Numbered from the stretch's first letter, positions 7,879 through 33,989 are shown. The stretch: 64,000 bases of DNA from an uncultured Actinomycetes bacterium (GCA_963701125.1 OY969568.1:2071510-2135509), one strand, 5' to 3'. Numbers and translations are program-made. Notes: a model not told the origin generated them from the sequence alone.

Positions 7879-8999
7879 CCGCCGAGGCTCTCGTGACGGC
7901 GGCCGTCGATGCGGGCGGGACGGTCGAGCTGCGCGCCGCCGGGGTGACCGTGCGCCGCCTGATCCCGCTGTGGCTGCGCGAGAACTGCCCCTGCCCCGAG
8001 TGCGCGCACCCGGCCGGCACCCAGCGCATCGTGGACATCACGGCGATCCGCGCCGACGTCCGGCCGCGCGACGTGCGCATCGCGGCGGGCGCGATCGAGA
8101 TCGACTGGGACGACGGCCACGCAAGCGTCTACGACATCGCGGCGCTGCTGGCGGCCGGCGCCGCCGACGACCTGCCTGCGATCGAGCTCTGGGACGCCGC
8201 GAGCACCCTCCCCGGCCCGTTCTCGGCCGGCGGGATCGCTCGCGACCAGGCCGAGCTGCGCGGGTGTCTTGAAGCGGTTCACCGCTTCGGCGTCGCGCTC
8301 GTGCATGCCGCGCCGGTGAAGCCCGGTGCGCTCGAGGCGATCGTCGCGCTCTTCGGGCATATCCGCGAGACAAACTACGGCCGGCTCTTCGACGTGCGCC
8401 TGCAGGTGGGTGCGGCCAACCTGGCCTACTCCGGCCGGGCGCTCGGGCCGCACACCGACAACCCCTACCGTGACCCGACCCCGGGGCTGCAGCTGCTGCA
8501 CTGCATCCGCGCAGACGGCGACGGTGGCGAGTCGACCCTCGTCGACGGCTTCGCGGTCGCCGACCTGCTCGGCCGGGTCGATCCCGACGCCCACGACCTG
8601 CTCGCGACGACCGAGATCGGGTTCCGCTATCGCGATTCCGGCGTCGACCTGCGATCACGGTTCCCGGTGCTGCGGCTCGCGCGCGACGGGACGCTCGCCG
8701 AGGTGCGCTGGAACACGCGGTCGTGCGAGCCGTTCCCGTTCGAGCCCGGGCTCGCCGAGGCCTACTACGGCGCCTACCGCGCGTTCGGCCTGCTTGCGAT
8801 CGACGAGCTGCTCGTGCGCCGCATCCGCCTGCGGCCCGGCGACGTCGTGGTGATGGACAACCTGCGCGTACTGCACGGCCGCACCACGATCCGGTCGCCG
8901 GGCGACCGTCACCTGCAGGGCTGCTACGCCGACCGCGACGGTCTGCGCAGCCGCCTGCGCACGCTCCGCCGACACGACCATCGGGAGGCCGCTCCATGA
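7875..8999 (+). CDS. tmpA: Fe/2OG dioxygenase of gamma-butyrobetaine hydroxylase family, TmpA-like
   Basis: WLRENCPCPEC Zn site, RETNYG.LFDV, HTDNPYRDP, DN.RVLHGR, HLQGCY; coupled to downstream HD gene. Confidence 0.75.
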   Translation: MTAEALVTAAVDAGGTVELRAAGVTVRRLIPLWLRENCPCPECAHPAGTQRIVDITAIRADVRPRDVRIAAGAIEIDWDDGHASVYDIAALLAAGAADDLPAIELWDAASTLPGPFSAGGIARDQAELRGCLEAVHRFGVALVHAAPVKPGALEAIVALFGHIRETNYGRLFDVRLQVGAANLAYSGRALGPHTDNPYRDPTPGLQLLHCIRADGDGGESTLVDGFAVADLLGRVDPDAHDLLATTEIGFRYRDSGVDLRSRFPVLRLARDGTLAEVRWNTRSCEPFPFEPGLAEAYYGAYRAFGLLAIDELLVRRIRLRPGDVVVMDNLRVLHGRTTIRSPGDRHLQGCYADRDGLRSRLRTLRRHDHREAAP

Positions 9000-9544
9000 G
9001 CACGATCATCGACGACATCTTCGCCACGTTTCGCCGCAGCGGCGACTCGACGTACCTCGGTGAGCCCGTCTCGCTGACCGAGCACATGCTCCAGAGCGCG
9101 CGCGCCGCCGAGGACGACGCCGCCCCTGCCACGCTTGTCGCCGCCGCGGTGCTGCACGACTTCGGCCACATGGTGCACGACCTCGACCCCGACTGTGCCG
9201 CCGAGGGCGTCGACAGCATGCACGAGGATGTCGGCTCGCGGTTCCTCGAGCGGCACTTCCCGCCTGCCGTGACCGAGCCGATCCGGCTCCACGTCGCCTC
9301 GAAGCGCTACCTGTGCGCGGTCGAGCCCGAGTACCTCGATGAGCTGTCCGAGGCGTCGCGGCACAGCCTGGAGCTCCAGGGCGGGCCGTTCTCGCCCGCC
9401 GAGGTGGACGAGTTCCGCCGCGGCCCGTTCGCCGACGACGCGGTGCGGCTGCGCCGCTACGACGACATCGCGAAGGTGCCCGGTCTCGCGACGCCCCCGC
9501 TCGAGCACTACCGCACCGTGCTCGAATCGGTGCGCATGGGCTGA
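8996..9544 (+). CDS. tmpB: HD-domain phosphonate oxygenase, TmpB/PhnZ family
   Basis: YLGEPVS.EHMLQ, LHDFGH, HE, HVASKRY, SLELQGG, YDDIAK; ATGA overlap with tmpA. Confidence 0.75.
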   Translation: MSTIIDDIFATFRRSGDSTYLGEPVSLTEHMLQSARAAEDDAAPATLVAAAVLHDFGHMVHDLDPDCAAEGVDSMHEDVGSRFLERHFPPAVTEPIRLHVASKRYLCAVEPEYLDELSEASRHSLELQGGPFSPAEVDEFRRGPFADDAVRLRRYDDIAKVPGLATPPLEHYRTVLESVRMG

Positions 9545-18970: not shown

Positions 18971-20365
18971 TCAGTACGCCATCGCGAGGTTGCCAGAGCC
19001 GGCCGCCTCGTCATCGGTGGGCTCGGGCGGAACCTCCTTGGCGTAACGGAACATCAGCCATCCGTCGATCACGCCGAGCACCGTGTAGAGCAGCGTGAAC
19101 CCGATCAGCGACGTCGCCACCTCCCACGCGGGCACGCTCGGCGACACGGCGTTCTTCGTCAGGAGCAGGCCCTGGACGACCCACGGCTGGCGCCCCATCT
19201 CGGTGAAGATCCAACCGGCGGTGTTGGCGATGATCGGAAGCGCGATCGCCCAGGTGGTCAGGCGCAGGAACCGGCGCGAGGTCTCGAGCGTGCCTCGCCA
19301 CAGCAGCCACATCCCGTAGGCGCAGATCAGGATCAGGACGACGGCGATCCCGGTCATGATCCGGAACGCCCAGTAGGTGACGCCGATGACGGGCCGGTAG
19401 TCGCCGGGGCCGTACTTGGCCTGATCCTGGGCGTTCAGCGTGTTGATGCCGTCCACCTTCCCGCCGAGCGAGTTCGTGGCGAGCACGGAGAGCAGGTCGG
19501 GGATGCGGATGTCGAACGACGATCGGCCGGGATGCTCCGAGAACGGCGCGACGGCGAAGAGCGAGAACGACGCGTGCGAGGTCGTGTTGTAGAGCGCCTC
19601 GGCGGCGGCCATCTTCATCGGCTGCTGCCTGGTCATCAGCTGGGCCTGGCCGTGGCCGACAAGCGAGGTGAAGAGCGACGCCGCCAGCACGATCGGCAGG
19701 GCGAGGCGGATCGCCTTGCCGAAGAGCTCGGTCTCCGATCCGCGGGCGAGGTGCCATGCCGACACCCCGGCGACGAGCATGCCGGCGGTCATCACGGCGG
19801 CGCCGATCGTATGCGGGAAGGCGTAGAGCAGCGTCGAGTTGGTCAGCACCTCGAGGATGCTCGTCAGGTGGGCGTGGCCGGTGGCCGGATCGATCTTGTA
19901 GCCGACCGGATGCTGCATCCACGAGTTGGCGGCGAGGATGAAGTACGCCGACAGGTTGGTGCCGATGGCGACCGTGTAGATGGTCGCCAGGTGGACGCGC
20001 TTGCCGAGCCGGCCCCACCCGAAGATCCACAGGCCCAGGAACGTCGACTCGAGGAAGAAGGCCGCCAGGCCCTCCATCGCCAGCGGCGCGCCGAACACGT
20101 CGCCGACGTAGCGCGAGTAGGCCGACCAGTTCATGCCGAACTGGAACTCCTGCACGATTCCCGTGACGACGCCGATCGCGAAGTTGATCAGCATCAGCTT
20201 GCCGAAGAACCGGGTCAGACGCAGGTAGGCGGGGTCGCCGCTTCGGTGCCAGAGGGTCTGGAACACGGCCACGAGCCAGGTGATCCCGATCGTGATCGGG
20301 ACGAAGATGAAGTGGTAGATGGTGACATCGCCGAACTGCAGGCGGGCGAGCTGGAGGGCGCTCAC
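18971..20365 (-). CDS. cydA: Cytochrome bd oxidase subunit I
   Basis: LARLQF..YHFIF, QEFQFGMNW, ANSWMQHP, QPMKMAAAE, GWIFTEMGRQPW. Confidence 0.95.
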   Translation of the reverse strand: MSALQLARLQFGDVTIYHFIFVPITIGITWLVAVFQTLWHRSGDPAYLRLTRFFGKLMLINFAIGVVTGIVQEFQFGMNWSAYSRYVGDVFGAPLAMEGLAAFFLESTFLGLWIFGWGRLGKRVHLATIYTVAIGTNLSAYFILAANSWMQHPVGYKIDPATGHAHLTSILEVLTNSTLLYAFPHTIGAAVMTAGMLVAGVSAWHLARGSETELFGKAIRLALPIVLAASLFTSLVGHGQAQLMTRQQPMKMAAAEALYNTTSHASFSLFAVAPFSEHPGRSSFDIRIPDLLSVLATNSLGGKVDGINTLNAQDQAKYGPGDYRPVIGVTYWAFRIMTGIAVVLILICAYGMWLLWRGTLETSRRFLRLTTWAIALPIIANTAGWIFTEMGRQPWVVQGLLLTKNAVSPSVPAWEVATSLIGFTLLYTVLGVIDGWLMFRYAKEVPPEPTDDEAAGSGNLAMAY

Positions 20366-21192
20366 CGGACGACCAGCACGGAGCAGCCGGCGTCGTGGGC
20401 GACGCGCTCGCTGACGCTGCCGAGCGATCGCACCCCGTGCAGGCCACGGCTTCCGATCACGAGCAGGTCGGGGGCGGCCATGGTCAGCGCCTCGATGGGG
20501 GTCTGCGGATCCTCGCGCAGCGGGATGTCGGTGCCGCCCGCCTCGTCCAGGCTGCGCCGCACCGCACCGACGTCGGCCTCCGACTGACCGCCGGTCGCGA
20601 CCACGGCGTCGAGCTCGGCTCCAAGCCTCTGGGCCAGCGCGACGGCGACGTGGATTGCGCGCACCGACTCGGCCGAGCCGTCGGCGGCCACAGTCACCGT
20701 CGCCGGGAACGTGCCCTCGCCCGCAGGGCGTGCCATCAGCACCGAGCAGGGGGCGTCGTGCAGGAGCTGGGTGGCGACGCTTCCGAGCAGGATCCCGGTC
20801 AGTCGATTGTGGTCGTGCGATCCGACGGCGACCAGCGTGGCCTTCTGGCGGCCGATCTCGGTCAGGAGCATCGGGCCGGGAGGGCCCTCGACCACCGACG
20901 TCGAGACGACCAGCGACTTCGGCAGCCGCGGCCGGGCCGAATCGACGGCGGCCTGCAGCTCGTCACGGGGGAACGATGCGGTGCGCGACACCGGGGGCGA
21001 CCAGCCGACCGCGAGCGATGCGCCGGTGTTCCAGACGCTGCAGAGGACGACGTGCGCCGCCTCCGGCGCGAGGCGCGCCGCCTGGCTCACGGCCTCGTAG
21101 CTCTCGTCGGTGCCATCCAGGCCGCACACGATCCGGTCGAAGATCGCGGCCACCCCTGTGCGAGCCGCGCCGAGCGTCGATTCGGTATCCAT
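20362..21192 (-). CDS. Tandem-domain universal stress protein
   Basis: IVCGLDG..LLGSVA..APCSVL and VAADGS..GSRG..LGSVSERV; overlaps cydA start. Confidence 0.88.
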   Translation of the reverse strand: MDTESTLGAARTGVAAIFDRIVCGLDGTDESYEAVSQAARLAPEAAHVVLCSVWNTGASLAVGWSPPVSRTASFPRDELQAAVDSARPRLPKSLVVSTSVVEGPPGPMLLTEIGRQKATLVAVGSHDHNRLTGILLGSVATQLLHDAPCSVLMARPAGEGTFPATVTVAADGSAESVRAIHVAVALAQRLGAELDAVVATGGQSEADVGAVRRSLDEAGGTDIPLREDPQTPIEALTMAAPDLLVIGSRGLHGVRSLGSVSERVAHDAGCSVLVVR

Positions 21193-21215: not shown

Positions 21216-23879
21216 TCACCATGTCTTGAGCGCCGTTGGCGCGGCCGAGTCCTCGACCCGGATCCGCGCGTCGACGGCGAGGCAGCCGTTCGGTCGGGCC
21301 ATGACCGGGTTCAGGTCGAGCTCGACGATCTGATGGAAGTCGGACGCAAGCTGGGCCAGGCGCCGCACGAGATCGGCCAGGGCGCGCGAGTCTGCCGGAG
21401 CCGCGCCGCGCATGCCGGCCAGGAGCGCCCCCGCCTTGCCGGCGGCGACGAGCTGGTCGGCGTCGACATCGGTCAGCGGCGCCGGCGCGAACCGGATCTC
21501 GCCCAGGAGCTCGGCCATCGTGCCGCCCATCCCGAACGCCACGACCGGCCCGAACACCGGGTCCTGCATCGCCCCCGCCATCACCTCGACGCCCCCGCGC
21601 ACCATCGGCTGGATGACGGCCGGGAAGCCGACGGTCGTGGTGGCCGCCGCGAGCTCGGCGGGCGTGCGCACGTCGAGCACGACGCCCCCCTTCTCGGTCT
21701 TGTGCACGCCCGCGGCGCCGGCTTTCACGACGACGGGGAACCCGAGCGCCTCGGCCGCCGCGAGCGCCTGCGAGCCGGTCTGCACGAGCTGCTGCGCCGC
21801 GGTCGGGATGCCGTATGCGGCCAGGAGCCTCTCGACCGCATCGGGGTCGAGCCAGCCCTCTCCGCCGGCCGCGAGCGTGGCGGCGACGATCTCCTCGCCG
21901 GCAGCCCGATCGACCTCGGCGTCGCGCACGCGCCCGATGGGCTGGCGCAGCCATTCGGCCCGCTCCGCCACCCGGCCGAGCACGCGGGCCGCCGTCTCGG
22001 GATACGCGAAGCACGGCAGGCCCGCCGCGATCCGCGTGCCCGCGCCGCCGGTCACCACGATCAGCACCGGCTTCTCCGCGTCGGTGGCCTTCGCCGCCGC
22101 GGCGATCGCGGCGATCACGTCGTCGGGATCGGCGACGGCGGTCGCGGTCACGAGCACGATCAGCGCATCGACGTCCGGGTCGCCGAGCACGAAGGGCGTC
22201 ACCGCGCCGAACACCTCCGGGGTCGCCGATCCGATGATGTCGACCGGGTTCAGCACGGTCGCCTCGCCGGACACGAGCTGGCTGATGTGCTCGCGCGTGT
22301 GCTGCGCAAGCTCCGAGAGCTCGAGGCCCGCGTTCGAGCAGGCGTCGCCGCACAGGATTCCGAGGCCGCCGGCATTCGTCAGGATCGCGGTGCGGCGGCC
22401 GTGAGGAAGCGGCTGCGAGGCGAGCACGTCGGTCAGGTCGAGCAGCTCCTCGAGCGTCGCGGCCCGAAGCACACCGGACTGGCGGAACAGGGCCTCGACC
22501 GCGGCATCCGAGCCCGCCAGCGCGGCGGTATGCGACTGGGCGGCGCGCGACCCGATCGGCGTGCTGCCGCCCTTGAGCGCGACGATCGGCTTGGTGCGCG
22601 ACACGCGCCGGGCGATCCGCCCGAACCGGCGCGGGTTGCCGAACGACTCCAGATAGAGGGCGATCGTGCCGGTCGGCTCGTCGTCCTCCCAGTGCTCGAG
22701 CAGGTCGTTCGACGACACGTCGGCCTTGTTGCCGACCGAGACGAACGACGAGACGCCCAGGCCGCGCCGCTCGAGGCCCTCGAGCACCGCGAGCCCGACG
22801 GCGCCGCTCTGCGAGGAGACGGCGACCCGCCCGGGCGCGAAGCCGGCCTGCGAGAAGGTCGCGTTCAGGTGCACGTCGCTCGAGGCGAGGCCGAGGCAGT
22901 TCGGGCCGATCATCCGCGCGCCGTAGCTGCGCACGAGCGCGAGCAGCTCGCGCTCGGCCCGCGCGCCCTCGAGACCGGTCTCGGCAAAGCCGGCGGTGAT
23001 CACGCAGACCGCCCGCACGCCGGCGGTGAGAGCCGACGCGACGGCAGCCTGCACCGCCGGTGCGGGGACGCAGATGACGACCAGGTCGACCTTCTCGGGC
23101 AGCTCCTCGATCGCGTGCGCCGCGGGGACGCCCGCGACCGGCTCACCTGACCTGTTGATGGGAAAGGCGCGCCCGGTGAAGCCGCCCTCGACGATGTTGC
23201 GGAAGACCGCTCCCCCGATTGCACCCGGCCGGGCGGACGCGCCGATGACGGCGACCGTCTTGGGCCGGAAGAACGCTCCGAGCGACTGGTCGATGGCGGA
23301 GTGGTCGCGCCTGTCGACCGCCTCCAGGAAGCGGTCGCTCGCCGCGATCTGCAGGCGCACCTGGATCTCGCCGCCCTCGAATGTCCGCTCCACGTCGTAG
23401 CCGGTGTCGGCGAACACCTGCAGCATGGCGTCGTTGTCCGCCATCACGTCGGCCACGAGCGTCTCGACGCCCGCGCGCGCGGCGGCGGCGGCGAGCTGCT
23501 CGACGAGCCGGGTGCCGACGCCGAGCCCCTGCATGTCCGTGGCGACGGCGAACGCCGCCTCCGCGAGACGGGGATCGCGGAGCCGGGCGTAGCTTGCCAC
23601 CGCCACCACCGCCTCGGCGCCGTCCTCGCCGCGCAGCACGCCGATCAGCGCGCCGCGGGTCGCCCAGTCGGGTTCGAGCAGGCCGTCGAGGATGTCGGGC
23701 CCGATCCGGCGCGTCCCGTGGAAGCGCAGATAGCGGCTCTCCTCGTCGAGCGCCGCGAAGAAGGCGAGCACGGCGCCGGCGTCGGCCGGTGCCGGCGGTC
23801 GCAGGCGCAGCGTCCGGCCATGACGAAGAATGACGTCGCGGACATGCGAACCGGTCGGTGAGTCGGGGGGACTCGACAT
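21216..23879 (-). CDS. GNAT + NDP-forming acyl-CoA ligase-like fusion (Pat-type)
   Basis: N-terminal GNAT (YLRF, AEAAFAV..QGLGVG), VAVIGAS, GPNCLG, SVGNKAD, SHTAAL, TNAGG, ATP-grasp HKTEKGGV, ELDLNP. Confidence 0.88.
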   Translation of the reverse strand: MSSPPDSPTGSHVRDVILRHGRTLRLRPPAPADAGAVLAFFAALDEESRYLRFHGTRRIGPDILDGLLEPDWATRGALIGVLRGEDGAEAVVAVASYARLRDPRLAEAAFAVATDMQGLGVGTRLVEQLAAAAARAGVETLVADVMADNDAMLQVFADTGYDVERTFEGGEIQVRLQIAASDRFLEAVDRRDHSAIDQSLGAFFRPKTVAVIGASARPGAIGGAVFRNIVEGGFTGRAFPINRSGEPVAGVPAAHAIEELPEKVDLVVICVPAPAVQAAVASALTAGVRAVCVITAGFAETGLEGARAERELLALVRSYGARMIGPNCLGLASSDVHLNATFSQAGFAPGRVAVSSQSGAVGLAVLEGLERRGLGVSSFVSVGNKADVSSNDLLEHWEDDEPTGTIALYLESFGNPRRFGRIARRVSRTKPIVALKGGSTPIGSRAAQSHTAALAGSDAAVEALFRQSGVLRAATLEELLDLTDVLASQPLPHGRRTAILTNAGGLGILCGDACSNAGLELSELAQHTREHISQLVSGEATVLNPVDIIGSATPEVFGAVTPFVLGDPDVDALIVLVTATAVADPDDVIAAIAAAAKATDAEKPVLIVVTGGAGTRIAAGLPCFAYPETAARVLGRVAERAEWLRQPIGRVRDAEVDRAAGEEIVAATLAAGGEGWLDPDAVERLLAAYGIPTAAQQLVQTGSQALAAAEALGFPVVVKAGAAGVHKTEKGGVVLDVRTPAELAAATTTVGFPAVIQPMVRGGVEVMAGAMQDPVFGPVVAFGMGGTMAELLGEIRFAPAPLTDVDADQLVAAGKAGALLAGMRGAAPADSRALADLVRRLAQLASDFHQIVELDLNPVMARPNGCLAVDARIRVEDSAAPTALKTW

Positions 23880-23995
23880 TCGCGAGAGGCTAAGCCGGGA
23901 TGCCGACCCGAGCATCCGTGGCATCGCCTAACCCTGTTTCGGGCAACTACCGAGCAGGAGACTAGACGGGTCCGGCCGAATGCGAAAGCGCGGGT

Positions 23996-24100
23996 CAGCT
24001 CGAACACCAGCCGCGCCGGGACGCCGCCCGCGACCCCCTCGGCGATCGACTCGATCACCGTCTCGAGCGGCCCACGAGCACGAGAGTGCCGCCGCCGGCT
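23996..24100 (-). pseudogene. Probable C-terminal remnant of an AdhP-type alcohol dehydrogenase
   Basis: Reads GPLETVIESIAEGVAGGVPARLVFEL, resembling actinobacterial AdhP C-termini as I recall them; rest of gene absent. Confidence 0.45.
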
Positions 24101-24118
24101 CTTACGGAGCCGCGGCGC

Positions 24119-24331
24119 TCACGCGGCCGACCGTTCCGCTGCGGCTTCCCGCAGGCTGATCGCGCCCACGGGGCACGCCGCGCAGATCCGCTCCGCCCGC
24201 GCCTGCTCGAGCGTGGCGACGCGGGCGCGTGCACAGCCGCCCCCGTCGAGCTCGACCGCCTCGGAGTCCTCCGCGACGCACTCTCCGTAGCCCACGCAGA
24301 CGTCGGGGTCGATGATCAGCTGCACGTTCAT
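24119..24331 (-). CDS. Small ferredoxin, probably 3Fe-4S
   Basis: CVGYGEC...ACPVGAI; AGAAGGAG RBS. Confidence 0.88.
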   Translation of the reverse strand: MNVQLIIDPDVCVGYGECVAEDSEAVELDGGGCARARVATLEQARAERICAACPVGAISLREAAAERSAA

Positions 24332-24375
24332 TGTCTATCTCCTTCTGCTGTGTGATGGTGGGGTGGTGGTCCTGC

Positions 24376-25491
24376 TCATGCCGCGAGCATGCGGCGGGCC
24401 TCGTTCAGCCGGGCCGGGGCGTCCAGCAGCACGACGCACGCCGGACGCCCCGTGTCGTCGTGGCCGACACGGAGGTCGTCGCGGCGCGACCATTCGCATA
24501 CGGCCGGCGCGAACCCGACCTGCTGGATGCGCAGGCTGCCGATGTCCGAGAACCAGTACGGATCGCGGACGTACGGATCGGCTGCTCCCAGCGCCGAGTC
24601 GGCCGCATGCACGCCGCTCGCGCGGGCGTTGTCCCAGTGGGGGACGGCGATCCGCCCGTAGCGCGGGTGCGGGAAGGCCGCCACGTCGCCGCACGCCCAG
24701 ACATCCTGCACGTCCGGCACCCGCAGGCGCTCGTCCGTGGCGACGGTCAGGCCGCCACCGAGGGCCGCGGGGAGCGTCGCGCTCACGCCGGTGGCGGCGA
24801 GGACGACGTCGGCCGCCAGGTCGCCGTGGGTCGACGTGCGCACCAACCACCCGCCGCGGGCGGGCTCCATGCCCGTGACCGCACACATTCGCAGAACCTG
24901 CACGCCCAGGCCGGCGAGGACGTGTTCGGTTGCGGCGCCGACCTCGGGGTGGTGGCGCTCGAGCACCCGGGATCCCCGGTCGAGCAGGACGACCCGATGG
25001 CGGCGGCCGAGCGTGGCAGCCGTCTCGCACCCGATCAGGCCTGCGCCGACGACGACGATCCTGCGACCAGGTAGGGCCAGCCGGGGCAGCAGGCGCTCGA
25101 TCGACGCGGCGTCGACATTCTGGTGGGCGGCGTCCAGCCCGGGCACCGACGGCCGGGCGATCCGCAGGCCGGTCGCCCAGACGAGCCGGTCGAACGCAAG
25201 CTGCCGGGGGGGCGAGCCGTGCCGCAGGCGTACGACCATGCGCCGGTGCTCGAGGTCGAGCGCCCCGGCCCAGCCGTCAACGTGATCGATCCCCATGCGC
25301 ACGAGCTCATCGGCGCCGGCCAGGTAGGGCACGGCGCCACGAACCAGGGCGCGCTTCGAGAGCGGCGGGCGGTCGCACGGCAGGCCGGGCCCGACGAGGA
25401 TCACCCTCGATCCGCGCTCGGCCAGGCGCCGCGCGCACGCATAGCCGGCGACGCCGTTTCCGACCACCGTGACCGGGTCGGCGCCGGGCAT
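24376..25491 (-). CDS. FAD/NAD(P)H ferredoxin reductase-like oxidoreductase
   Basis: VVGNGVAG, DRPPLSK, WATG, GAGLIGCE, ACGD, PYFWSD. Confidence 0.85.
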   Translation of the reverse strand: MPGADPVTVVGNGVAGYACARRLAERGSRVILVGPGLPCDRPPLSKRALVRGAVPYLAGADELVRMGIDHVDGWAGALDLEHRRMVVRLRHGSPPRQLAFDRLVWATGLRIARPSVPGLDAAHQNVDAASIERLLPRLALPGRRIVVVGAGLIGCETAATLGRRHRVVLLDRGSRVLERHHPEVGAATEHVLAGLGVQVLRMCAVTGMEPARGGWLVRTSTHGDLAADVVLAATGVSATLPAALGGGLTVATDERLRVPDVQDVWACGDVAAFPHPRYGRIAVPHWDNARASGVHAADSALGAADPYVRDPYWFSDIGSLRIQQVGFAPAVCEWSRRDDLRVGHDDTGRPACVVLLDAPARLNEARRMLAA

Positions 25492-26069
25492 CAGCCGCCC
25501 CCGTCCGGGTCGGTCGCGACGGACGCCACGGGCGTCCGGGCCGGAGCCGGCCGCACTCGCGATGCGGGCAGTGGGCGATCGAGCCAGCGGTACCAGGCGG
25601 CACCGGCGACGATCGCTGCGGAACACCCGTAGAAGCCGAGCGCCCACGCGGAGCGGGAGTCGGTGCCCGTCATCACGCCGTGGGCGAGCGCGGCGCCCCA
25701 GAACGCGTAGCCGAGGTAGTGCAGCGCCCGCCAGGCGCGCTGGCTCAGCCACCGTGCCTGCTTGAGCCGAAACGACGCGGGCAGCGCGATCGCCAGCCAC
25801 AGCGCCACGGCTCCGACGACGACGCCGGGACGTGGATCGCGCCCGACCAGCGAGCCGACGCCGACCCGCGCGAAGGGGTCGAGCATGAGCGTCGAGATGT
25901 GGGTGGCGAGCGCGACCAGGCCGAGCGAGGCCAGGAAGCGGTGGAAGCCGAGCGCCGCGGCCGGCGGCCGCCAGGCGCGCGCCGAGAGGCCGATGCCCCA
26001 CGCGACGACGAGCGTGTAGCAGGCGAACGCGACAAGGGCGCTGGCCCGGGCGATGTCCCAGAGCATCAT
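25491..26069 (-). CDS. Ferric reductase-like (MsrQ-type) heme membrane protein
   Basis: Five hydrophobic segments; FHRFL, THI, WRALHY, AHG..GTD His pattern. Confidence 0.85.
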   Translation of the reverse strand: MMLWDIARASALVAFACYTLVVAWGIGLSARAWRPPAAALGFHRFLASLGLVALATHISTLMLDPFARVGVGSLVGRDPRPGVVVGAVALWLAIALPASFRLKQARWLSQRAWRALHYLGYAFWGAALAHGVMTGTDSRSAWALGFYGCSAAIVAGAAWYRWLDRPLPASRVRPAPARTPVASVATDPDGGG

Positions 26070-26995
26070 TGCTGCACCATCTGCTCCCAGCGCGGCGTCG
26101 TCCGCGCGCGGCCGTCGATCGAGACCATGGCCGCCTCGGTGACGGCCTCGATGCGCTCGGGGCGCAGGGCGAGCACCTTGGCGAGCACGTCCGCGGCGAC
26201 GGGGTCGTCGCTGACGACGGTCGCGTGCGCCAGCGGCCCGGGCTGGCCGGTGTCAGGGTCGATCAGGTGGTGGGCCTCGCGGCCGTCCCCGTTGCGCCAC
26301 CTGCGCCGCCCGAACCCGGACGTGGCAACGCCCTGGCCGGCCCGCACGAGCACGTGCGCGACGATCGGAAGCTCGGGTGCGTCCTCGATCCGCAGGGCCG
26401 CGGCCCCGGGCGCCTCGACGGCGACGATGTGATCGCCGCGGGCCGCCACCAGGTCGCCGCCGGCGTCGACGAGGATGCTGGCGTCGTCGCACCGGCCGCA
26501 CAGCAGCGCGGCCGCCCGCCCGGCCATCCAGCTCTTCGCGATGCCGCCGAGGTCGACTCGCGTGCCGCGCGGGATCCGGGCCGTGCCGCGGCCGCGGTCG
26601 ACCTCGATCCGCGCGTGCAGCGGGCGGGCTCCCGGGCTCTGCGCGGCGTAGGCCGAGGTCTCGAGCAGACTGCGCCGGTAGCCCCACGCCGCGAGGGTGC
26701 CGCCGACGAGAGGCTGGAACACCCCGCCGGTCCGCTCCGCCCAGGTCACGCACGCCTCCAGGACGCGGAGCGTGTCCGCCGAGACGGTGACCGGCGCGCC
26801 TGCTGCGGTGTTCATTCGCGAGACCTCGCTCGCAGGCCGGAAGCGCGACCAGCGAGCCTCGTCGTGCTCGACCGCCGCCGCGACGACCCGGGCGAGCTCC
26901 GGTGTGACGCCGCCGCTGTGGTGGATGCGCCAGGTGGTGCCGGTCGCCCGCCACTCCCAGGCCGCTGATGTGGTTGGTGCGTGCGCGGTCGTCAT
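26066..26995 (-). CDS. apbE: FAD:protein FMN transferase
   Basis: WSRFRPASEVSR, DLGGIAKS, DAGGD, ATSG, HHLIDP.TG, ADVLAK. Confidence 0.9.
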   Translation of the reverse strand: MTTAHAPTTSAAWEWRATGTTWRIHHSGGVTPELARVVAAAVEHDEARWSRFRPASEVSRMNTAAGAPVTVSADTLRVLEACVTWAERTGGVFQPLVGGTLAAWGYRRSLLETSAYAAQSPGARPLHARIEVDRGRGTARIPRGTRVDLGGIAKSWMAGRAAALLCGRCDDASILVDAGGDLVAARGDHIVAVEAPGAAALRIEDAPELPIVAHVLVRAGQGVATSGFGRRRWRNGDGREAHHLIDPDTGQPGPLAHATVVSDDPVAADVLAKVLALRPERIEAVTEAAMVSIDGRARTTPRWEQMVQQ

Positions 26996-27399
26996 GGCGC
27001 GGGGCTCGTGTGCGTCGTGGGCGCCGGAGCCGGCGTGACGGGCGCCGGGGCGGGTGCCGAGGCCACGGGCAGCGAGACGGTCGCCGCGCTTGGGGACGGC
27101 GACGGGACCGTCGCCGTGGCCGCGGCGCCGGCGCGCTGGGCCTTCGCGATCGCAACGAGCAGCGTGTGCTGCGATCGCCGGGTGCGCACCACGAGCCGGT
27201 CGTACCGGACGACCAGACCGCGCATGCTGCGGGTCGTGTGCTGGTCGTGGGCGACTGCCTGCGCCGCCAGAGCGTGCCACGAGCGGGCATCGGCCTGCCA
27301 TGCGCTCGCGATCGAGCTCTGGTGGATCGACCACGCCAGCGCACCCCCGCAGATCAGCGCGATGGCCGTCGTGTAGATGCGAAGCGCGGTGCTAGTCAT
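26992..27399 (-). CDS. Small membrane-anchored protein with Pro/Ala/Thr tail
   Basis: N-terminal TM, helical middle, tail ending PTTHTSPAP; overlaps both neighbours. Confidence 0.7.
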   Translation of the reverse strand: MTSTALRIYTTAIALICGGALAWSIHQSSIASAWQADARSWHALAAQAVAHDQHTTRSMRGLVVRYDRLVVRTRRSQHTLLVAIAKAQRAGAAATATVPSPSPSAATVSLPVASAPAPAPVTPAPAPTTHTSPAP

Positions 27400-27766
27400 C
27401 GCCGCCTCCGTCTCCGCCGCCGTCGCCGCCGGCCGGGCTCGTTCGGGTGACGGGTGCCGTGGTCGCGGTCGCCACCGGCGCGGGGGCCGCGGCGGCCACG
27501 ACGACCGGAGCCGCGACGACTGCCACCTGCGGCGGCCGGTGGTGCACGTGGATCTTCGGCACGTGTGGCGGCCGCCATGTCAGCACGTGCAGCGCCGGGT
27601 GGGCTTCATGCCCGACCTGCAGCTCCCTCTGGAGCGTGGCGCGGGCGGCCGCCGACACCGGCAGGCCGGCTCCCAGCCCGATGTCGTGGCGCGCGGCGTA
27701 CGTGCCGCCGGCCACCATCAGGCCTGCGAGCACAGCCGCCCCGGCGACGGACGGATGGCTGATCAC
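27392..27766 (-). CDS. Small exported protein with Pro/Ala/Thr linker and Gly/Asp tail
   Basis: AGAAGGAG RBS + GTG; hydrophobic N-terminus; ends PVTRTSPAGGDGGGDGGGDD. Confidence 0.7.
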   Translation of the reverse strand: MISHPSVAGAAVLAGLMVAGGTYAARHDIGLGAGLPVSAAARATLQRELQVGHEAHPALHVLTWRPPHVPKIHVHHRPPQVAVVAAPVVVAAAAPAPVATATTAPVTRTSPAGGDGGGDGGGDD

Positions 27767-27838
27767 GGGTTCTCCTTCTGGTCGGGATAAGGGGGAGCGG
27801 GTCGCTCCCTCAACTCCACGGTAAGGAGGTCGCGTGAG

Positions 27839-29575
27839 CTAGACGTGAGCCGGCGGTGAGACTGCTCTCACCATGCCGTCGCGCGGAACGCCGGAGCGCG
27901 TCCGTGGCAGCTCGACGACGAAGGTCGCTCCCTCGCCGGGAGGGCTCTGCGCCGAGATCGTGCCTCCGCAGGCGTCAACGATCGCGTGGCAGATCGCGAG
28001 CCCCAGGCCGGCGCCGCCGGTGTCGCGGCTGCGCGCGCTGTCGGCGCGGGTGAACCGATCGAAGAGCGACGGCAGGAGGACCGGATCGATGCCCTCGCCG
28101 GTGTCGGCCACCTCGATGCGAACGCGGTCGCCCCGAACCGCGGTGGTCACGCGGATCGTGTCGCCTGCCACGGTGTGGCGCACGGCGTTCGAGAGCAGGT
28201 TCAGGAAGACCTGCTCGAGCGCGCCCGCGTCGCCGTCGACGGCCGCGCCGGGCGCCGTTTGGAGCTGCCACGTGCGCTCACCGAGGACGCGGCAGCGGTC
28301 GACTGTCGCCGCTGCCAGCGCCGAGACGTCCACGGGCCGGCGATCGCCGCCGCCGCGGTCGCCGGCCCGTGCCAGCCGCAGCAGGCTGTCGACGAGCTGG
28401 CCCATCCGATCGAGCTCCCCGATCGCGATCTCCACGGCCTGGCGCAGCTCGTCCGACCCCCCCTCGCCGGGGAGCGCCACCTCGAGATGGCCGCGGGCGA
28501 TGGTCAGTGGCGTGCGCAGCTCGTGCGACGCGTCGTGCACGAACTGGCGCTGGGCGGCGAACGCGACCTCGAGCCGGTCGAGCATGGCGTCGATCGCGGT
28601 TGCGACCTCGCCGATCTCGTCGCGGGTCGCGACCGGTCCCATCCGCACCGACAGGTCACCGGCGGTCACGCGGGATGCCCGGTGGGCGATGCGCGAGAGC
28701 GGGGAGAGCGCACGCCGTGCCGCCCACCAGGCCGCCGCGGTGGCCGGCACAAGGCCGATCAGGCACACGATCATCATGGCGTCGAGCAGCCGGTTCACGG
28801 CGGCGTCGGCTTCGGCGACGGGCAGCCCGGCCATCACGATGCCCGTGCCGCGGGCGGCGGTCGCGACGATGTAGCCGTCACCGTCGATGGAGACGGTGCG
28901 AACGAGGCCGGGCTGCGGGCGGCCCAGACGGGCGAGCCTCGTCGCCAGCGGCCGGTTCGCGTACGGCACGCCGTGCCGCGGCAGATAGACGAGCAGCTCG
29001 TTCGAGCCGCTGCGTGCGCCGAGGTACGTCCGCAGCGCCTCCAGCTCGCCGGCGTCGTCGCTCTCCTGGCCGGTCGAGCGGCGCAGATACGAGACGTCGG
29101 TGCGGCCCGGCCCGGCCGCCGAGTCGCCGCTCTCGCCGCCGCCGCTGCTGCCACCACCCCATCCGCTGCTGTTCCCGCCGCCGTCATCGCCCGTGCCGTC
29201 GTCGCTGCCGGTCGTCGGGGGCGTCCACGTCGACCCGCCGCCGCCCGCCGACGAGCTGTCCGTCGCACCCGTAACCGGCGGCGGCACGATCGGGCTCGTC
29301 GATCCACCCGCCCGCGAGCGGTGGCGTTTGGCATGTGCGTGGCTCGTGGTCGGCGTGCCCGGCGTCGAGGGCGTCGGCGCCGCGCCCTGCCCCGCCGGCC
29401 GCTCGCCGGCGAGCGCCAGATCGCGTGCCGCGGCCCGTGCGTTTGCGACGAGCGACTGGTGCACCTGATGGGCCTCGATCAGGTAGACGGTCAGGAGCCC
29501 GGCCGCCAGGACGCCTGCGGCGAGCCCCGCGCTCACGAACGCGAGCCGCGTTCGGATGGGGATGCGGCTGATCAC
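27839..29575 (-). CDS. HAMP sensor histidine kinase with low-complexity sensor insert
   Basis: Two TMs, HAMP, DASHELRTPL, NLLSNA, DTGEG, GAGLGL. Confidence 0.92.
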   Translation of the reverse strand: MISRIPIRTRLAFVSAGLAAGVLAAGLLTVYLIEAHQVHQSLVANARAAARDLALAGERPAGQGAAPTPSTPGTPTTSHAHAKRHRSRAGGSTSPIVPPPVTGATDSSSAGGGGSTWTPPTTGSDDGTGDDGGGNSSGWGGGSSGGGESGDSAAGPGRTDVSYLRRSTGQESDDAGELEALRTYLGARSGSNELLVYLPRHGVPYANRPLATRLARLGRPQPGLVRTVSIDGDGYIVATAARGTGIVMAGLPVAEADAAVNRLLDAMMIVCLIGLVPATAAAWWAARRALSPLSRIAHRASRVTAGDLSVRMGPVATRDEIGEVATAIDAMLDRLEVAFAAQRQFVHDASHELRTPLTIARGHLEVALPGEGGSDELRQAVEIAIGELDRMGQLVDSLLRLARAGDRGGGDRRPVDVSALAAATVDRCRVLGERTWQLQTAPGAAVDGDAGALEQVFLNLLSNAVRHTVAGDTIRVTTAVRGDRVRIEVADTGEGIDPVLLPSLFDRFTRADSARSRDTGGAGLGLAICHAIVDACGGTISAQSPPGEGATFVVELPRTRSGVPRDGMVRAVSPPAHV

Positions 29576-30255
29576 GCCGCCCGCTCGCGGATGAGCCGGT
29601 ATCCCATCCCACGGACGGTCTCGATCGGGGAGCGCCCCTCGGTCGCCAGCTTCCGGCGCAGGTACCCGATGTAGACGTCCACCAGGTTCGAGCGCGGATC
29701 GAACGTGTAGCCCCAGACGCCGTCCAGGATCTGCTGGCGCGAGAGCACCTGGCCCGGGTGCCGCATGAGGAAGGCGAGCAGCGCGAACTCCCGGGCCGAG
29801 AGCTGCACGCGGGCACCGTCCACCTCGGCCTCGCGCGCGAGCAGGTCGAGCATGAGCGGCCCGACCTCGATCGTCGCGGCGCTCCGGGGCTGGTCGGCCG
29901 GCCGGCGAGTGTGGGCGCGCAGCCGCGCAGCCAGCTCGGCGAATGCAAACGGCTTGACGAGGTAGTCCGTCGCTCCCAGGTCGAGGCCGCGCACGCGGTC
30001 GGCGATCTCGCCGCGTGCGGTCAGCATGATCACCGGCAGGTACGGATCGATCGCCCGGATTGCGGCAAGGACGTCGAACCCGTCGATGCCGGGCAGCATC
30101 ACATCGAGAACAACGACGTCCGGCTGGCCGTCGCGCAGGCGGTCAAGCCCCTCCTCCCCGCGGGTGGCCGTGTCGACGACGTGCCCCTCGGCCGCGAGCC
30201 CTCGTGCGAGGAAGGCCAGGATCAGCGTCTCGTCCTCGATGACGAGGATCTTCAT
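29572..30255 (-). CDS. OmpR/PhoB-family response regulator
   Basis: LVIEDE, LDVMLP, KPF, NLVDVYIGYLRRK, ETVRGMGY. Confidence 0.93.
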   Translation of the reverse strand: MKILVIEDETLILAFLARGLAAEGHVVDTATRGEEGLDRLRDGQPDVVVLDVMLPGIDGFDVLAAIRAIDPYLPVIMLTARGEIADRVRGLDLGATDYLVKPFAFAELAARLRAHTRRPADQPRSAATIEVGPLMLDLLAREAEVDGARVQLSAREFALLAFLMRHPGQVLSRQQILDGVWGYTFDPRSNLVDVYIGYLRRKLATEGRSPIETVRGMGYRLIRERAA

Positions 30256-30493
30256 CTCTCCCCAGTCTGGTGCCTGGAAATAAGGGCGCTCTCACCCTAG
30301 ATCCGCGTGGCGTGCGGCACATGAGGGCCGAATACGAGAGCCCGCCGCGTAGGAACTACGGATTGTTCCGGCGGAGAACTGCGGGTCTCGATGCAGCCCG
30401 TCCCCGGATGCGACCGGCGCGCCCGCGCGGGCAAGCTGTGTGGGCGAGCCTCGGCGGCTCGTCATCGACCCTCCCAAGGAGACCATCGTACCA

Positions 30494-30910
30494 ATGGCCA
30501 ACGCACCGAATGGAATCAGATCGGCGACCCGTGAGGATCTGCTGACGGCGATGCACAGCGAGGCGTTCGCCCACGCCTCCTACATGCTCTTCGCAGCCCG
30601 AGCGCGGGCGGATGGGCGCACGGAGGTCGCGGAGCTCTTCGAGGCGGTCGCGCAGGCCGACCTGCACCGGCACTTCGCAGCGCTTGCGACCGAGGCCGGG
30701 CTGGCCGGAGGCGACGACGAGAATCTGCGGGCCGCGATCGAGGCGGCGTCCTACGCCGTCGAGGTCATGTACCCGTCCTTCGCCGAGCATGCCGCGGCGG
30801 CGGGCGACACCGGGGCGGCGGACGCCTTCACGGCCGCGCGCGCCGCCGGCATCGGCCACCTCGAGTCGTTCCGCGAGGCCCTGCTCGACGTGACCGCCGA
30901 CGGAGCCTGA
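30494..30910 (+). CDS. Rubrerythrin/ferritin-like protein, degenerate
   Basis: AAGGAG RBS; EAFAHASY..FA..A, ENLRAAI, MYPSFA; no rubredoxin domain. Confidence 0.7.
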   Translation: MANAPNGIRSATREDLLTAMHSEAFAHASYMLFAARARADGRTEVAELFEAVAQADLHRHFAALATEAGLAGGDDENLRAAIEAASYAVEVMYPSFAEHAAAAGDTGAADAFTAARAAGIGHLESFREALLDVTADGA

Positions 30911-30911
30911 G

Positions 30912-31283
30912 TCAGCGCCGCTCGATGAGGACGAACCTCCGCATGACCAGGATCCCCTCCGGGTGCGGGGTGTAGCTGCGGCCGTAGTGCTCGAACAGGC
31001 GCCGCTCCTCGTCGGGGCTCAGATCGTCGTCCGCGGGCACCGACGGCGCGCCCTCGATGGCGGCCTTCGAGACCGCCACCTGCACGCGCTCGTCCGACCG
31101 GGTCGCCCCCTCAGCCGGTACGAGATGCAGGCTGTGGCCGAGGAACCCGCTCGAGACGAGCAGGAATTCGGGCTCCCCCGTGCCCGTCGCGACGTAGACG
31201 TCGACGAGCTTGCCGACGTGCTCCCCGTCCTGCGACACGACCTCGAGCTCGTGCCAGTCCTGTACCTCGAGTGGTGATGGCAT
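30912..31283 (-). CDS. PRC-barrel domain protein
   Basis: DGEHVGKLVDVY..TGEPEFL.V.SGFLG, LSPDEERRLFEHYG. Confidence 0.8.
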   Translation of the reverse strand: MPSPLEVQDWHELEVVSQDGEHVGKLVDVYVATGTGEPEFLLVSSGFLGHSLHLVPAEGATRSDERVQVAVSKAAIEGAPSVPADDDLSPDEERRLFEHYGRSYTPHPEGILVMRRFVLIERR

Positions 31284-31398
31284 CTGTGGTCCCCCGTGAC
31301 GGTGTGCGGAATCGGCGCCGATCCTACCGATAAGGACGGTGCGGGGTAGACTCCGCGCGCAGTCGAAGGGGTTTGCCGGGTGGAACGGCCGCGCCTGG

Positions 31399-33102
31399 AT
31401 GACGGGATCCGACAAGCACACCACGGTAGGAGCAGCAGCCTCCGGCGGCGCCACCGCGTCAGCGCGAGTCGGCGAAGCGCGGCTGCGTGACGTGATCGAG
31501 GCGACGCGCGGGCTGCACCGCTCGCGATCGCTCGAGACCCTCCTGCGCGACGTGGCCGAGACGGCGGCGACCCTTGTGGGCTCGCGCTATGCGGCCCTCG
31601 GCGTGATCGACCCGACCGGGATCTATCTCGAGCAGTTCATCACCGTCGGGATCGACGACGCCACCCGGGCGCGCATCGGCGACCTGCCGCGCGGGCAGGG
31701 CATCCTCGGCGTCCTGATCCACGGAGCGGCCTCGCTGCGCCTGCACGACATGAGCGAGGATCCACGCTCGGTCGGCTTCCCGCCAGGCCATCCACCGATG
31801 AAGAGCTTCCTGGGCGTGCCGATCATGCTGCGCGGCCACGCGTTCGGCAACCTCTACCTGACCGAGAAGGAGCAGGGCGACTTCACCGAGGAGGACCAGG
31901 AGGTCGTCGAGCTGCTGGCCTCCCAGGCGGCGGTCGCGATCGAGAACGCGCGTCTCTACGACGCCTCCCGCAGGTGGGCCAGACAGCTTGACTCGCTGAA
32001 CGAGATCGGCTCGGCGCTTGTCACGGAGCTCGACATCGACCGCCTGCTGGGCGTGGTCGCCGACCGGCTGCGCGAGCTGCTCGGAGCACGGGTCGTCCTC
32101 ATCGACCTGCTCCACTCCGACGGCAGCCTGCGCGTCGAGGGCGCGTCGGGCGAAGGTGCTGCGGAGCTGATCGGCTCGATCAGCCCGGAGGGCTCGAAGA
32201 GCCATCACGTGCTGCGGAGGATGAGCAGCGAGCGGGTCGACTCCGCCCTCGAGGATCCCGAGATCCATCCCGAGGGCGAGGCCGAGCGGCTTGACGTGCA
32301 GGCGGGGCTGTGGGTGCCGCTGGTCGTGCGCGGCGAGCCGATCGGCGTGATCGCGGCGGCCGACAAGCTGGGCCGCGACCCGCGGTTCACCGACGGCGAT
32401 CTGCGCCTGGCGGAGGCATTCGGGTCGCGTGCCGCCGGGGCGGTCGAGCTCACCCGCCGCGTCAGCCGGGAGACGGTCCGGTCGATGCTCCAGGCCCAGG
32501 AGGCCGAGCGCTCGCGGCTCTCGCGCGACCTGCACGATCAGACCGGCCAGTCGCTGACCGCCCTCCTGCTCGGCCTGAACGCCGCCCAGCGCGCCGGAAC
32601 CCTCGAGGAGGCGAGGAGCGCGCTTGCAGAGCTCGACGGGCTGGTGCGCGAGGCGCTCGCCGACGTCCGCAGCATCGCCGTACGGCTGCGTCCGGCGGCG
32701 CTCGACGAGCATGGGCTCGCCGCCGCGCTCGAGCGCATCGCGGCGACGATCCGGGGAGGCGAGGATGTCGAGGTCGTGGTCACGACGACGCTTCGCGACG
32801 ACCGGCGTCTACCCGCCGAGATCGAGACGGCGGTCTACCGGATCGTGCAGGAGGCGGCCACGAACGCCGTCCGCCACGGCGGCGCCCGGCGAGTCGATGT
32901 GACCGTCGTGACTCGACCGGACGCGGTCGTCGCCTCGATCGAGGACAACGGGGCGGGCTTCGACACCGGGGGCGTGGACGAGGGCCGGCTCGGCCTGGTC
33001 GGGATGCGCGAGCGGGCAGGCCTCTTCGACGGACACCTGCGAGTCGAGTCCACGCCCGGCCGGGGCACCACAGTCACGGCCGAGCTGCCCCTCGGCGGGT
33101 AG
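31399..33102 (+). CDS. DosS/DevS-like GAF-GAF-HisKA_3 sensor kinase
   Basis: YAALGV, GILGVL, SVGFPPGHPPMKSFLGVP, RDLHDQTGQ, QEAATN, EDNGAGF. Confidence 0.88.
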   Translation: MTGSDKHTTVGAAASGGATASARVGEARLRDVIEATRGLHRSRSLETLLRDVAETAATLVGSRYAALGVIDPTGIYLEQFITVGIDDATRARIGDLPRGQGILGVLIHGAASLRLHDMSEDPRSVGFPPGHPPMKSFLGVPIMLRGHAFGNLYLTEKEQGDFTEEDQEVVELLASQAAVAIENARLYDASRRWARQLDSLNEIGSALVTELDIDRLLGVVADRLRELLGARVVLIDLLHSDGSLRVEGASGEGAAELIGSISPEGSKSHHVLRRMSSERVDSALEDPEIHPEGEAERLDVQAGLWVPLVVRGEPIGVIAAADKLGRDPRFTDGDLRLAEAFGSRAAGAVELTRRVSRETVRSMLQAQEAERSRLSRDLHDQTGQSLTALLLGLNAAQRAGTLEEARSALAELDGLVREALADVRSIAVRLRPAALDEHGLAAALERIAATIRGGEDVEVVVTTTLRDDRRLPAEIETAVYRIVQEAATNAVRHGGARRVDVTVVTRPDAVVASIEDNGAGFDTGGVDEGRLGLVGMRERAGLFDGHLRVESTPGRGTTVTAELPLGG

Positions 33103-33557: not shown

Positions 33558-33989
33558 TCAGCGCACGATGACGACAGGGCACGTTGCCCGCTGTGCGGAC
33601 TGATGCCCGACCGATCCGAGCAGGAGCTCCTTGAAGCCGCCCAGGCCGCGCGATCCGACGACGAGCATATCGGCGCCCTCGGCCGCCTCGGTCAGCACCA
33701 GTGCGGCCGATCCCTCGCCGACCTGGCGCTCGACCTCGATCCCGGCGAGCAGATCCTTCGCCCCATCGAGCGCGCGGTCGAGGCCGGCCTTCGCCGCCGC
33801 CTCGAGGTCGTCCTCCCAATCGATCCCCACGGGCGGCACGAAGCCGCCGCTGCCATAGGCCGCCGCCGGCATGTGCCAGGCATGCACCGCCCGCAAACGG
33901 GCCCCGCGCAGCCGGGCTTCCGCCGCAGCCCACTCGAGCGCCGCCTGTGCGCCCTTCGAGCCGTCCACGCCTACGACGATCAGTGCCAT
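33558..33989 (-). CDS. Universal stress protein
   Basis: IVVGVDGS, VVGSRGLGGF..LLGSV, CPVVIVR. Confidence 0.92.
   Translation of the reverse strand: MALIVVGVDGSKGAQAALEWAAAEARLRGARLRAVHAWHMPAAAYGSGGFVPPVGIDWEDDLEAAAKAGLDRALDGAKDLLAGIEVERQVGEGSAALVLTEAAEGADMLVVGSRGLGGFKELLLGSVGHQSAQRATCPVVIVR

Follow-up and report, generated by a model that had tools for sequence, protein, structure and literature searches.

The 64,000-nucleotide stretch analysed here (the window; GCA_963701125.1 OY969568.1:2071510-2135509, from an uncultured Actinomycetes bacterium) carries a cluster of eight genes that includes one for an ApbE-family FAD:protein FMN transferase (FAD, flavin adenine dinucleotide; FMN, flavin mononucleotide). 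We propose, with a probability of roughly 0.45, that this cluster encodes a two-component-regulated, MsrQ-like electron conduit, in which the FMN-binding-domain subunit would be replaced by two small N-terminally anchored proteins, small1 and small2, with C-terminal flavinylation tags. The proposal is read from sequence comparison, and it is centred on the following features:

27392-27766, minus strand: small1, 124 aa, anchored; GTG start after GAAGGAG
27437..27454, minus strand: small1 motif P-V-T-R-T-S, 13 codons upstream of the small1 stop
26992-27399, minus strand: small2, 135 aa, N-anchored; a helix, then a disordered Pro/Ala tail ending PTTHTSPAP
27004..27021, minus strand: small2 motif P-T-T-H-T-S, proposed FMN attachment site (Ser)
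26066-26995, minus strand: ApbE-family FAD:protein FMN transferase, 309 aa, PF02424 148.8 bits; start overlaps the small2 stop (ATGA)

As the initial annotation had stated, both small proteins have tails with P-x-T-x-T-S-P-A: the small2 tail is APAPTTHTSPAP, containing APTTHTS, and the small1 tail is APVTRTSPAGGDGGGDGGGDD, containing APVTRTS. Neither protein matches a Pfam or NCBIfam family. In AlphaFold2 (AF2) models small2 is a single continuous helix from residue 2 to 97 (block pLDDT 87-97) with a disordered tail behind it (98-135), and small1 has a transmembrane (TM) helix (7-26), a second helix (35-51) and otherwise no regular structure, with a mean pLDDT of 61. Distant small2 relatives have strongly basic N-termini, e.g. 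KRRKRLQR ahead of the TM segment, so by the positive-inside rule the small2 N-terminus is predicted inside and the tail outside.

The end of small2 is strongly conserved. P-x-T-[HRK]-T-S closes the protein in all 25 GTDB loci, as its last six residues or with PAP or PVP behind it, and in the same 25 loci the ApbE start lies at or over the small2 stop codon. The Pro/Ala linker ahead of the motif varies freely in length and sequence among the relatives, and the Thr and Arg codons of the motif show synonymous changes across loci, indicating that selection acts on the peptide. Small2 was matched in 32 of 61 related genomes (E <= 0.01), the strong matches coming from the same genus and three to four other genera of the family; these occurrence counts, like those for small1 and the linker comparison, include one genome flagged as unpublished (G016), on which no claim hangs. 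Beyond these genomes, a word-indexed search of 5.8 billion proteins gave 97 clusters of small2 relatives, none with a Pfam domain and all named only “hypothetical”, save one that is evidently mislabelled, and T[HRKS]TS stands no more than three residues from the end in 73 of the 97. A look-up in the ESM Atlas likewise returned “hypothetical protein” clusters only. A full hidden Markov model (HMM) search of 1.84 billion representatives gave 91 matches. In 49 of them [ST]-x-[TA]-S is the exact C-terminus, in 8 more the motif lies 1-3 residues short of it, and 7 belong to a short clade in which [VI][VI]TG[AS][TAP][IVL]VSY lies internally; most of the remaining 27 are fragments or frameshifted reads. 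Of the 49, 46 have P at -6 and 41 have T at -2, and the variable position is occupied by K (11), G (8), H (8), R (6), Q (5), A (4), S (4) or T (3). For comparison, T[HRKS]TS occurs within the last 25 residues of 11 of 4243 proteins of this genome, which is a rough background only, because the crude gene caller used (based on third-position G+C content, GC3) missed small2 and two of the other small open reading frames (ORFs) described below (68 and 103 aa). By these counts the shared TxTS tail motif is conserved beyond chance; its conservation in apbE-linked homologues was a check that the initial annotation had proposed.

In one relative (L102, 3501-5360) a 619-aa frame appeared to join small2, ApbE and the membrane protein encoded after it; this candidate fusion was rejected, since the genome is a frameshifted metagenome-assembled genome (MAG) in which PTTHTS-stop lies in another frame, and the joined frame most likely reflects indel errors in the assembly. 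Similar frame problems were seen in L108, L109 and L146.

Small1 was matched in 25 of the 61 relatives (E <= 0.01), each time directly before small2. Its T[RS]TS, in the setting T[RS]TS-P-x-GG-acidic, is present in 17 of these 25 loci with synonymously varying codons, while the others have [ST][AS]GSS (4), HTS (1), no motif (1) or an unreadable tail owing to frame problems (2). We do not claim that small1 and small2 are paralogues; the single BLAST match between them (E 9.5e-07 with composition statistics off) may be compositional.

According to the review PMC12052999, in the sections dealing with the motif, the canonical target is D-x-x-[S/T]-G-A-[S/T] with the last residue modified, flavinylation falls to about 50% with G>A or A>V, D>A has a small effect, and seven-residue flavin tags perform best at a protein terminus. 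The window tails APTTHTS and APVTRTS do not conform to D-x-x-[S/T]-G-A-[S/T]. With the invariant terminal Ser as the anchor of the alignment, T-H-T-S falls on [S/T]-G-A-[S/T], and several relatives come close to the canonical form: PTSGTS, PSSGTS and PTTGTS carry G at the variable position (8 of 49), others have TTGSS, one cluster ends in TSGAS, and the short clade has an internal TGAT or TGST. In the distant genome G057 a TGST-type protein overlaps the ApbE start, a second one lies directly before another set of genes for a ferric-reductase-domain (FRD) protein, ferredoxin reductase (FdR) and ferredoxin (Fd), and a TSGTS-type protein is found between the two. These comparisons suggest that the tails derive from the canonical motif and are not wholly unrelated to it, and that the acceptor is likely the invariant Ser, aligned with the last residue of [S/T]GA[S/T]. 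The initial annotation had taken TxTS for a non-canonical flavinylation site. A candidate site at this place is partly supported by the conservation, the near-canonical relatives and the parallel families given below, while the “TxT” part is probably not the acceptor and the motif appears to derive from the canonical one.

The G057 locus (L075, G057:C1:40000-53000) also contains two near-identical FRD genes (2110-2685 and 7062-7640) about 5 kb apart, one after ApbE and the other followed by FdR and Fd, with a short-clade small2-like gene ahead of each; Pro/Gly-run ORFs on the opposite strand between them are probably non-coding.

To place the cluster among other ApbE loci, we surveyed the window genome and its order. 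The genome is a Gaiellales MAG in a single contig of 4.28 Mb, 86.88% complete by marker count, and has six ApbE genes. The initial annotation reported no FMN_bind protein in the cluster and regarded a canonical substrate elsewhere as a possible explanation of ApbE. The cluster indeed lacks such a protein, and FMN_bind (PF04205), DUF2271, DUF3570, RnfD/NqrB and Flavodoxin_4 have no match anywhere in the window genome. Three FMN_red genes are present, which are unlinked to any ApbE, of ordinary length and without [ST]G[AS][ST] near the end. All six ApbE genes adjoin a gene for a membrane cytochrome b, four of the Ferric_reduct type and two of the cytochrome-b561 type, and the four Ferric_reduct-type genes beside ApbE are all such genes in the genome. 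In an order-wide sample of 151 genomes, ApbE was found in 114 and FMN_bind in 31; within the genus the figures are 18 of 23 and 1 of 23, the latter a partial match (the counts include one genome flagged as unpublished, G088, and no claim hangs on it). The survey of Meheust et al. 2021 (PMC8238504) states, in the part of the text concerned, that 4% of apbE genomes were left orphan and that further substrates remain to be identified. With ApbE present and the known substrate families missing, this lineage is such an orphan-apbE case. The number of ApbE genes is unusually expanded in some members of the order: a genome of the same family (G092) has 15 ApbE matches in 4.1 Mb, and several others have 7-9.

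Small tailed proteins are not confined to the window cluster. Each of the three other FRD-linked ApbE loci of the genome has a small N-anchored ORF without a Pfam family. A 93-aa protein (L010) is encoded directly upstream of ApbE and belongs to a family that is Ser-terminal in 24 of 24 rows, with ends such as TTAQS, TTSQS, TTSVS, ASGVS, NAGAS, STGVS and VSGTS, and with ApbE as a neighbour in 23 of 24 and FRD in 24 of 24. A 68-aa protein (L007) overlaps the FRD start; in its family, whose rows come from 15 of 17 loci, 10 rows end in ATTRTSPV[GA]AG and a sister group of 5 rows has HATT[QS][ST]SP plus a C-terminal T[ST]RSS. A 103-aa protein (L008) lies upstream of ApbE and belongs to a family ending in [ST]S[SG]GS in 8 of 10 rows; the copy of the window genome contains an internal SGAT that is not conserved in the family. 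In a quick maximum-likelihood tree built from 65 ApbE sequences, every partner family pairs with an ApbE clade of its own, with SH-aLRT (Shimodaira-Hasegawa-like approximate likelihood ratio test) values of 99-100. Since kin share neighbours, this match indicates long-standing linkage, not proven co-evolution.

The locus L007 (G000:C1:2901000-2917000) is a paralogous module at 5208-9254, with a ferredoxin (61 aa) and a ferredoxin reductase (375 aa) on one strand, and anchored ORFs of 73 and 68 aa (the latter ending ATTRTSPVAAG), FRD (204 aa), ApbE (323 aa) and a lipoprotein-like ORF of 144 aa on the other. At L009 (7162-8645) and L011 (7599-9028) the ApbE paralogues stand beside cytochrome-b561-type (Ni_hydr_CYTB) proteins, and on the quick tree they fall in or adjoin the small2-type ApbE clade. 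As a separate observation, the FRD paralogue of L010 (G000:C1:1219000-1235000; 6997-7992, minus strand; 331 aa) has a sixth TM helix and, in addition, about 120 C-terminal residues that form an extra domain without a Pfam match, predicted outside the membrane.

The window ApbE itself is a clear member of its family, with PF02424 matched over residues 19-285 at 148.8 bits against a cut-off of 25.6. Its closest solved relative is TM1553 (1vrm; E 2.5e-18), other relatives in the PDB being 4xdt, 4ifu and 6nxi. The stretches ATSG, HHLIDP and AADVLA align with ATSG, HHILDP and ADALS of TM1553 and may hold the catalytic Ser, His and Asp. With these core stretches kept, the enzyme looks active. For V. 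cholerae ApbE the catalytic residues are Ser241-His257-Asp285, and cytosolic ApbEs are known as well (both in the corresponding sections of PMC12052999). The N-terminus of the window ApbE (MTTAHAPTTSAAWEW...) has no hydrophobic signal, in agreement with the initial annotation, and a hydrophobic N-terminus is also absent from 22 of 22 orthologues, so that no signal peptide or lipoprotein signal is recognised. The same order contains canonical clusters (4 complete examples), in which FRD is fused to FAD/NAD domains and an anchored FMN_bind protein (with SGATYTS or GGASYTS) is encoded directly upstream of an ApbE that is equally signal-less; small2 holds this same position in the window. A signal-less ApbE even beside canonical FMN_bind points to a lineage property, which gives no specific argument against exported substrates. 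Enzyme and substrate could meet through modification before export or through an unrecognised export route.

The remaining genes of the cluster would supply the electrons and the regulation:

29572-30255, minus strand: RR, OmpR-type response regulator (Pfam Response_reg 104.9 bits, Trans_reg_C 98.2 bits)
27839-29575, minus strand: HK, sensor histidine kinase (Pfam HAMP, HisKA, HATPase_c)
29261..29272, minus strand: TGAT (in PPVTGATD), canonical [S/T]GA[S/T] string in the HK loop, HK residues 102-105
25491-26069, minus strand: FRD protein, minimal ferric-reductase-domain, MsrQ-like, 192 aa, PF01794 18.6 bits
24376-25491, minus strand: FdR, ferredoxin-NAD(P)+ reductase-type flavoprotein, Pyr_redox_2 143 bits
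24119-24331, minus strand: Fd, small single-cluster ferredoxin, Fer4_15 28.6 bits, Fer4_19 23 bits

All eight genes thus lie on the minus strand in the co-oriented and mostly overlapping order that the initial annotation described. Overlaps occur at 5 of 7 junctions (RR/HK 4 nt, small1/small2 8, small2/ApbE 4, ApbE/FRD 4, FRD/FdR 1), and the two others are gaps of 72 nt (HK-small1) and 44 nt (FdR-Fd), each with a Shine-Dalgarno-like GAAGGAG before the next start (for Fd, an ATG). A scan for promoters and terminators in 23800-30600 found none. The eight-gene order is intact in 16 of 20 related loci examined (L056-L071).

The FRD protein matches PF01794 with an E-value of 0.002, under the 28-bit cut-off, and its paralogues in the genome reach 35.7 bits. 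It has about 5 TM helices, and H43, H57, H117 and H130 are invariant in 18 sequences. It consists of the TM core only, and the separate Pyr_redox_2 reductase and the ferredoxin follow. E. coli MsrQ(YedZ)/Fre and the FRD proteins of the NOX/STEAP kind have a four-His two-haem TM core, through which electrons pass outward from a cytosolic flavin/NAD(P)H donor. The four-His core is found here too, whereas the donor is FdR plus Fd, no MsrP-type periplasmic partner is present, and ApbE and the tail proteins are added. The C-terminal tail of FRD was considered as a flavin site, as P-x-R-T-P/A occurs in the window protein and two paralogues, and was rejected because the Thr is not kept in 21 orthologues. 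A complex prediction of FRD with small2 1-100 and two haems scored 0.00 in both runs, which were made without controls, and says nothing about binding either way.

The best NCBIfam matches of FdR are dioxygenase ferredoxin reductases, far under their cut-offs. RR and HK are best matched by heavy-metal subfamilies, a response regulator (211 bits, cut-off 279) and a sensor kinase (233 bits, cut-off 292.55), and these sub-cut-off matches to Czc/Sil/Cop-type subfamilies give a weak hint of a metal as acceptor or signal. HK has a long Gly/Ser/Thr/Asp/Pro-rich loop between TM1 and HAMP, in which the TGAT string lies. As a conserved site this string was rejected: PPPVTG[A/S][S/T]D (TGAS, TGSS) is found in the nearest subclade only, further orthologues have VTGTD or VTGSG, and distant ones have no loop. 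By its sequence, the HK sensor loop may still be flavinylated in the window.

Among known systems, the closest likeness is to the MsrQ-like flavinylation systems of Actinobacteria, as described in the relevant part of Meheust et al. 2021 (PMC8238504). Both have apbE beside a two-haem membrane protein of the PF01794 type, putatively so in the window, and a cytosolic NAD(P)H-linked donor in an actinobacterial lineage, and relatives from the same order carry the textbook form. In contrast to those systems, the window cluster has no FMN-binding-domain gene and two domain-less anchored tail proteins instead, its FRD lacks the fused FAD/NAD domain (PF00175) and is served by separate FdR and Fd, and a two-component system is attached. 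We suggest that the cluster would work like, and is best filed beside, these systems, though two of their usual features fail.

The small proteins can likewise be set against the canonical substrates (FMN_bind proteins such as NqrC, RnfG, PplA and NosR; DUF2271; DUF3570), as far as these are covered in PMC8238504 and PMC12052999. They share an [ST]-x-x-[ST] core, a gene adjoining apbE and a membrane-anchored, extracytoplasmic placement (predicted for the small proteins), and some small2 relatives have G at the second position or the full TGAT/SGAS. They differ in lacking a folded flavin-binding domain, in having H/R for G, T for A and Pro for the upstream Asp in the window copies, and, for small2, in the placement of the site at the C-terminus or no more than 3 residues from it. 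FMN_red substrates (Huang et al. preprint 10.1101/2024.03.13.584918) receive the flavin on a C-terminal extension that is unstructured, and an engineered 7-residue “flavin-tag” (Tong et al. 2021, as related in PMC12052999) also has its site on a flexible terminal peptide. FMN_red, however, keeps a flavin-binding fold to accommodate the tethered FMN, and the flavin-tag is artificial, whereas the window tails would be natural tags without a binding domain. No paper joining ApbE with Gaiellales was found, and orphan apbE was treated in nothing found beyond the 2021 survey PMC8238504, the supplementary tables of which were outside the search.

On the proposed reading of a conduit with tail-bound flavin, NAD(P)H would reduce FdR, which would reduce Fd, and Fd would pass electrons to the haems b of the minimal FRD protein, first the inner and then the outer one. 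ApbE would attach FMN as an ester to the invariant Ser in the small2 motif P-x-[TS]-x-[TA]-S and to the related TRTS-P site in small1. The outer haem, if the tail lies near it, would reduce the tail-bound FMN, and this FMN, tethered by a helical stalk of about 70 residues and a floppy tail of about 38, would hand electrons to an outside acceptor, perhaps Fe(III) or Cu(II). Five parts of this account are inferred: that the tails are flavinylated, at which residue, that the tail reaches the outer haem, which way the electrons flow and what accepts them.

Several points weigh against this reading. The small proteins have no domain to hold or tune a flavin. The window motifs THTS and TRTS lack the G-A core and the upstream Asp, tails rich in S/T/G/A can yield [ST]G[AST][ST] by chance, and the small1 motif is absent in 1 of 25 loci and altered in 5. 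In exported actinobacterial proteins, tails rich in Ser, Thr and Pro are typical targets of O-glycosylation. The tails are predicted outside, whereas ApbE lacks an export signal, and the Pfam match of FRD falls below the gathering score. Since orthologues are kin, neither the counts of conserved loci nor the match between clades and partners represents independent events. Near the ApbE genes of L009 and L011 (2 of 6 ApbE loci) no small-tail ORF was found. Finally, a conventional substrate could exist elsewhere: P0184 (G000:C1 about 676.5 kb; L168 996-2396, plus strand) is an exported protein of 466 aa with a signal peptide and no Pfam family, which carries DLASGATYS in an N-terminal beta-rich region and, though unlinked, could by sequence be a conventional ApbE substrate.

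The alternative that survives best, which we consider less likely, holds that the small proteins are structural or regulatory partners (FRD scaffolds or assembly factors, or HK ligands), with a Ser/Thr end that is O-glycosylated or used for docking, and that ApbE modifies FRD or a P0184-like protein. It would fit the Pro/Ala/Thr/Ser-rich and predicted extracytoplasmic tails, the missing signal peptide of ApbE, the non-canonical motif of the window, the canonical string of the exported P0184, and the HK loop, the composition of which is the same as that of the small1 tail. It accounts poorly for relatives that show near-canonical [ST]G[AT]S or TGAT in the same position and for four separate small-tail families, each beside its own ApbE clade. 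Besides, glycosylation sequons are seldom preserved as a terminal hexapeptide to the letter, here one in which 46 of 49 representatives have P at -6. As for the substitute substrates, the candidate Thr of the FRD tail is not conserved, and P0184 lies about 520 kb from the nearest ApbE; D..[ST]GA[ST] strings number 10 genome-wide against a rough chance expectation of about 12, and none is within 15 kb of ApbE.

Considerably less probable is that the signal-less ApbE paralogues transfer no FMN to protein but work in the cytoplasm, trafficking flavin or cleaving FAD as pyrophosphatases in the manner of T. pallidum Ftp, and supply FMN or FAD to the neighbouring membrane cytochromes or reductases. 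Pyrophosphatase activity of the Ftp type is on record (abstracts of PMC4767422 and PMC4436053), all six paralogues are signal-less and stand beside a membrane cytochrome b, and no small-tail partner was found at the two b561-type loci. This alternative leaves the conserved tail motifs and their canonical-like variants unexplained, and the pairing of a signal-less ApbE with canonical FMN_bind (SGATYTS) in the same order leads one to expect transferase activity in the lineage.

The weakest alternative, that the small ORFs are not genes and that the motif simply arises from Pro/Ala-rich frames in high-GC DNA or from translational-coupling signals in the nucleotide sequence, can draw on the many long spurious ORFs of high-GC DNA (the window has about 74% G+C), on the position of the small2 motif next to the downstream start codon and on a Ser codon that is AGC in nearly all copies, but it is highly improbable and already largely refuted by both ORFs being kept in order and frame across genera with synonymous changes in the Thr/Arg codons, by the small1 motif standing well ahead of its own stop, by the 91-97 relatives of the same architecture from the HMM searches and by the confident long helix of small2.

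Outside the cluster, the flanks (20362-21150, 21216-23924, 30440-33102, 33558-33989) include two universal stress proteins, one at 33558-33989 called by eye, a GNAT fused to an ADP-forming acyl-CoA synthetase (902 aa), a rubrerythrin-like protein, a PRC-barrel protein and a GAF-GAF-HisKA_3 kinase with DosS/DosT architecture. This looks like a redox or dormancy-type neighbourhood.

Taken beyond the single cluster, a tentative generalisation, to which we give less than even odds, is that Gaiellales and possibly other orphan-apbE bacteria use natural flavin tags, i.e. domain-less anchored peptides with a C-terminal Ser-FMN attached by a dedicated ApbE paralogue, that would act as tethered flavins on helical stalks and carry electrons from a minimal two-haem FRD protein into or through the cell wall. 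If each ApbE lineage has its own tag (THTS, TRTS, TSQS, SGGS), the specificity of ApbE would be far broader than [S/T]GA[S/T]. Should the tails prove to be flavinylated, a missing substrate class would be named for orphan apbE genomes, both those of the 2021 survey and most of this order, and a redox cofactor could function on a bare flexible tether without a binding domain. The recognised ApbE motif would be widened, which would be relevant to genome annotation and to protein engineering with flavin tags. It would also offer a first way into extracytoplasmic electron transfer in the Gaiellales, which are abundant in soil and have hardly been cultured.

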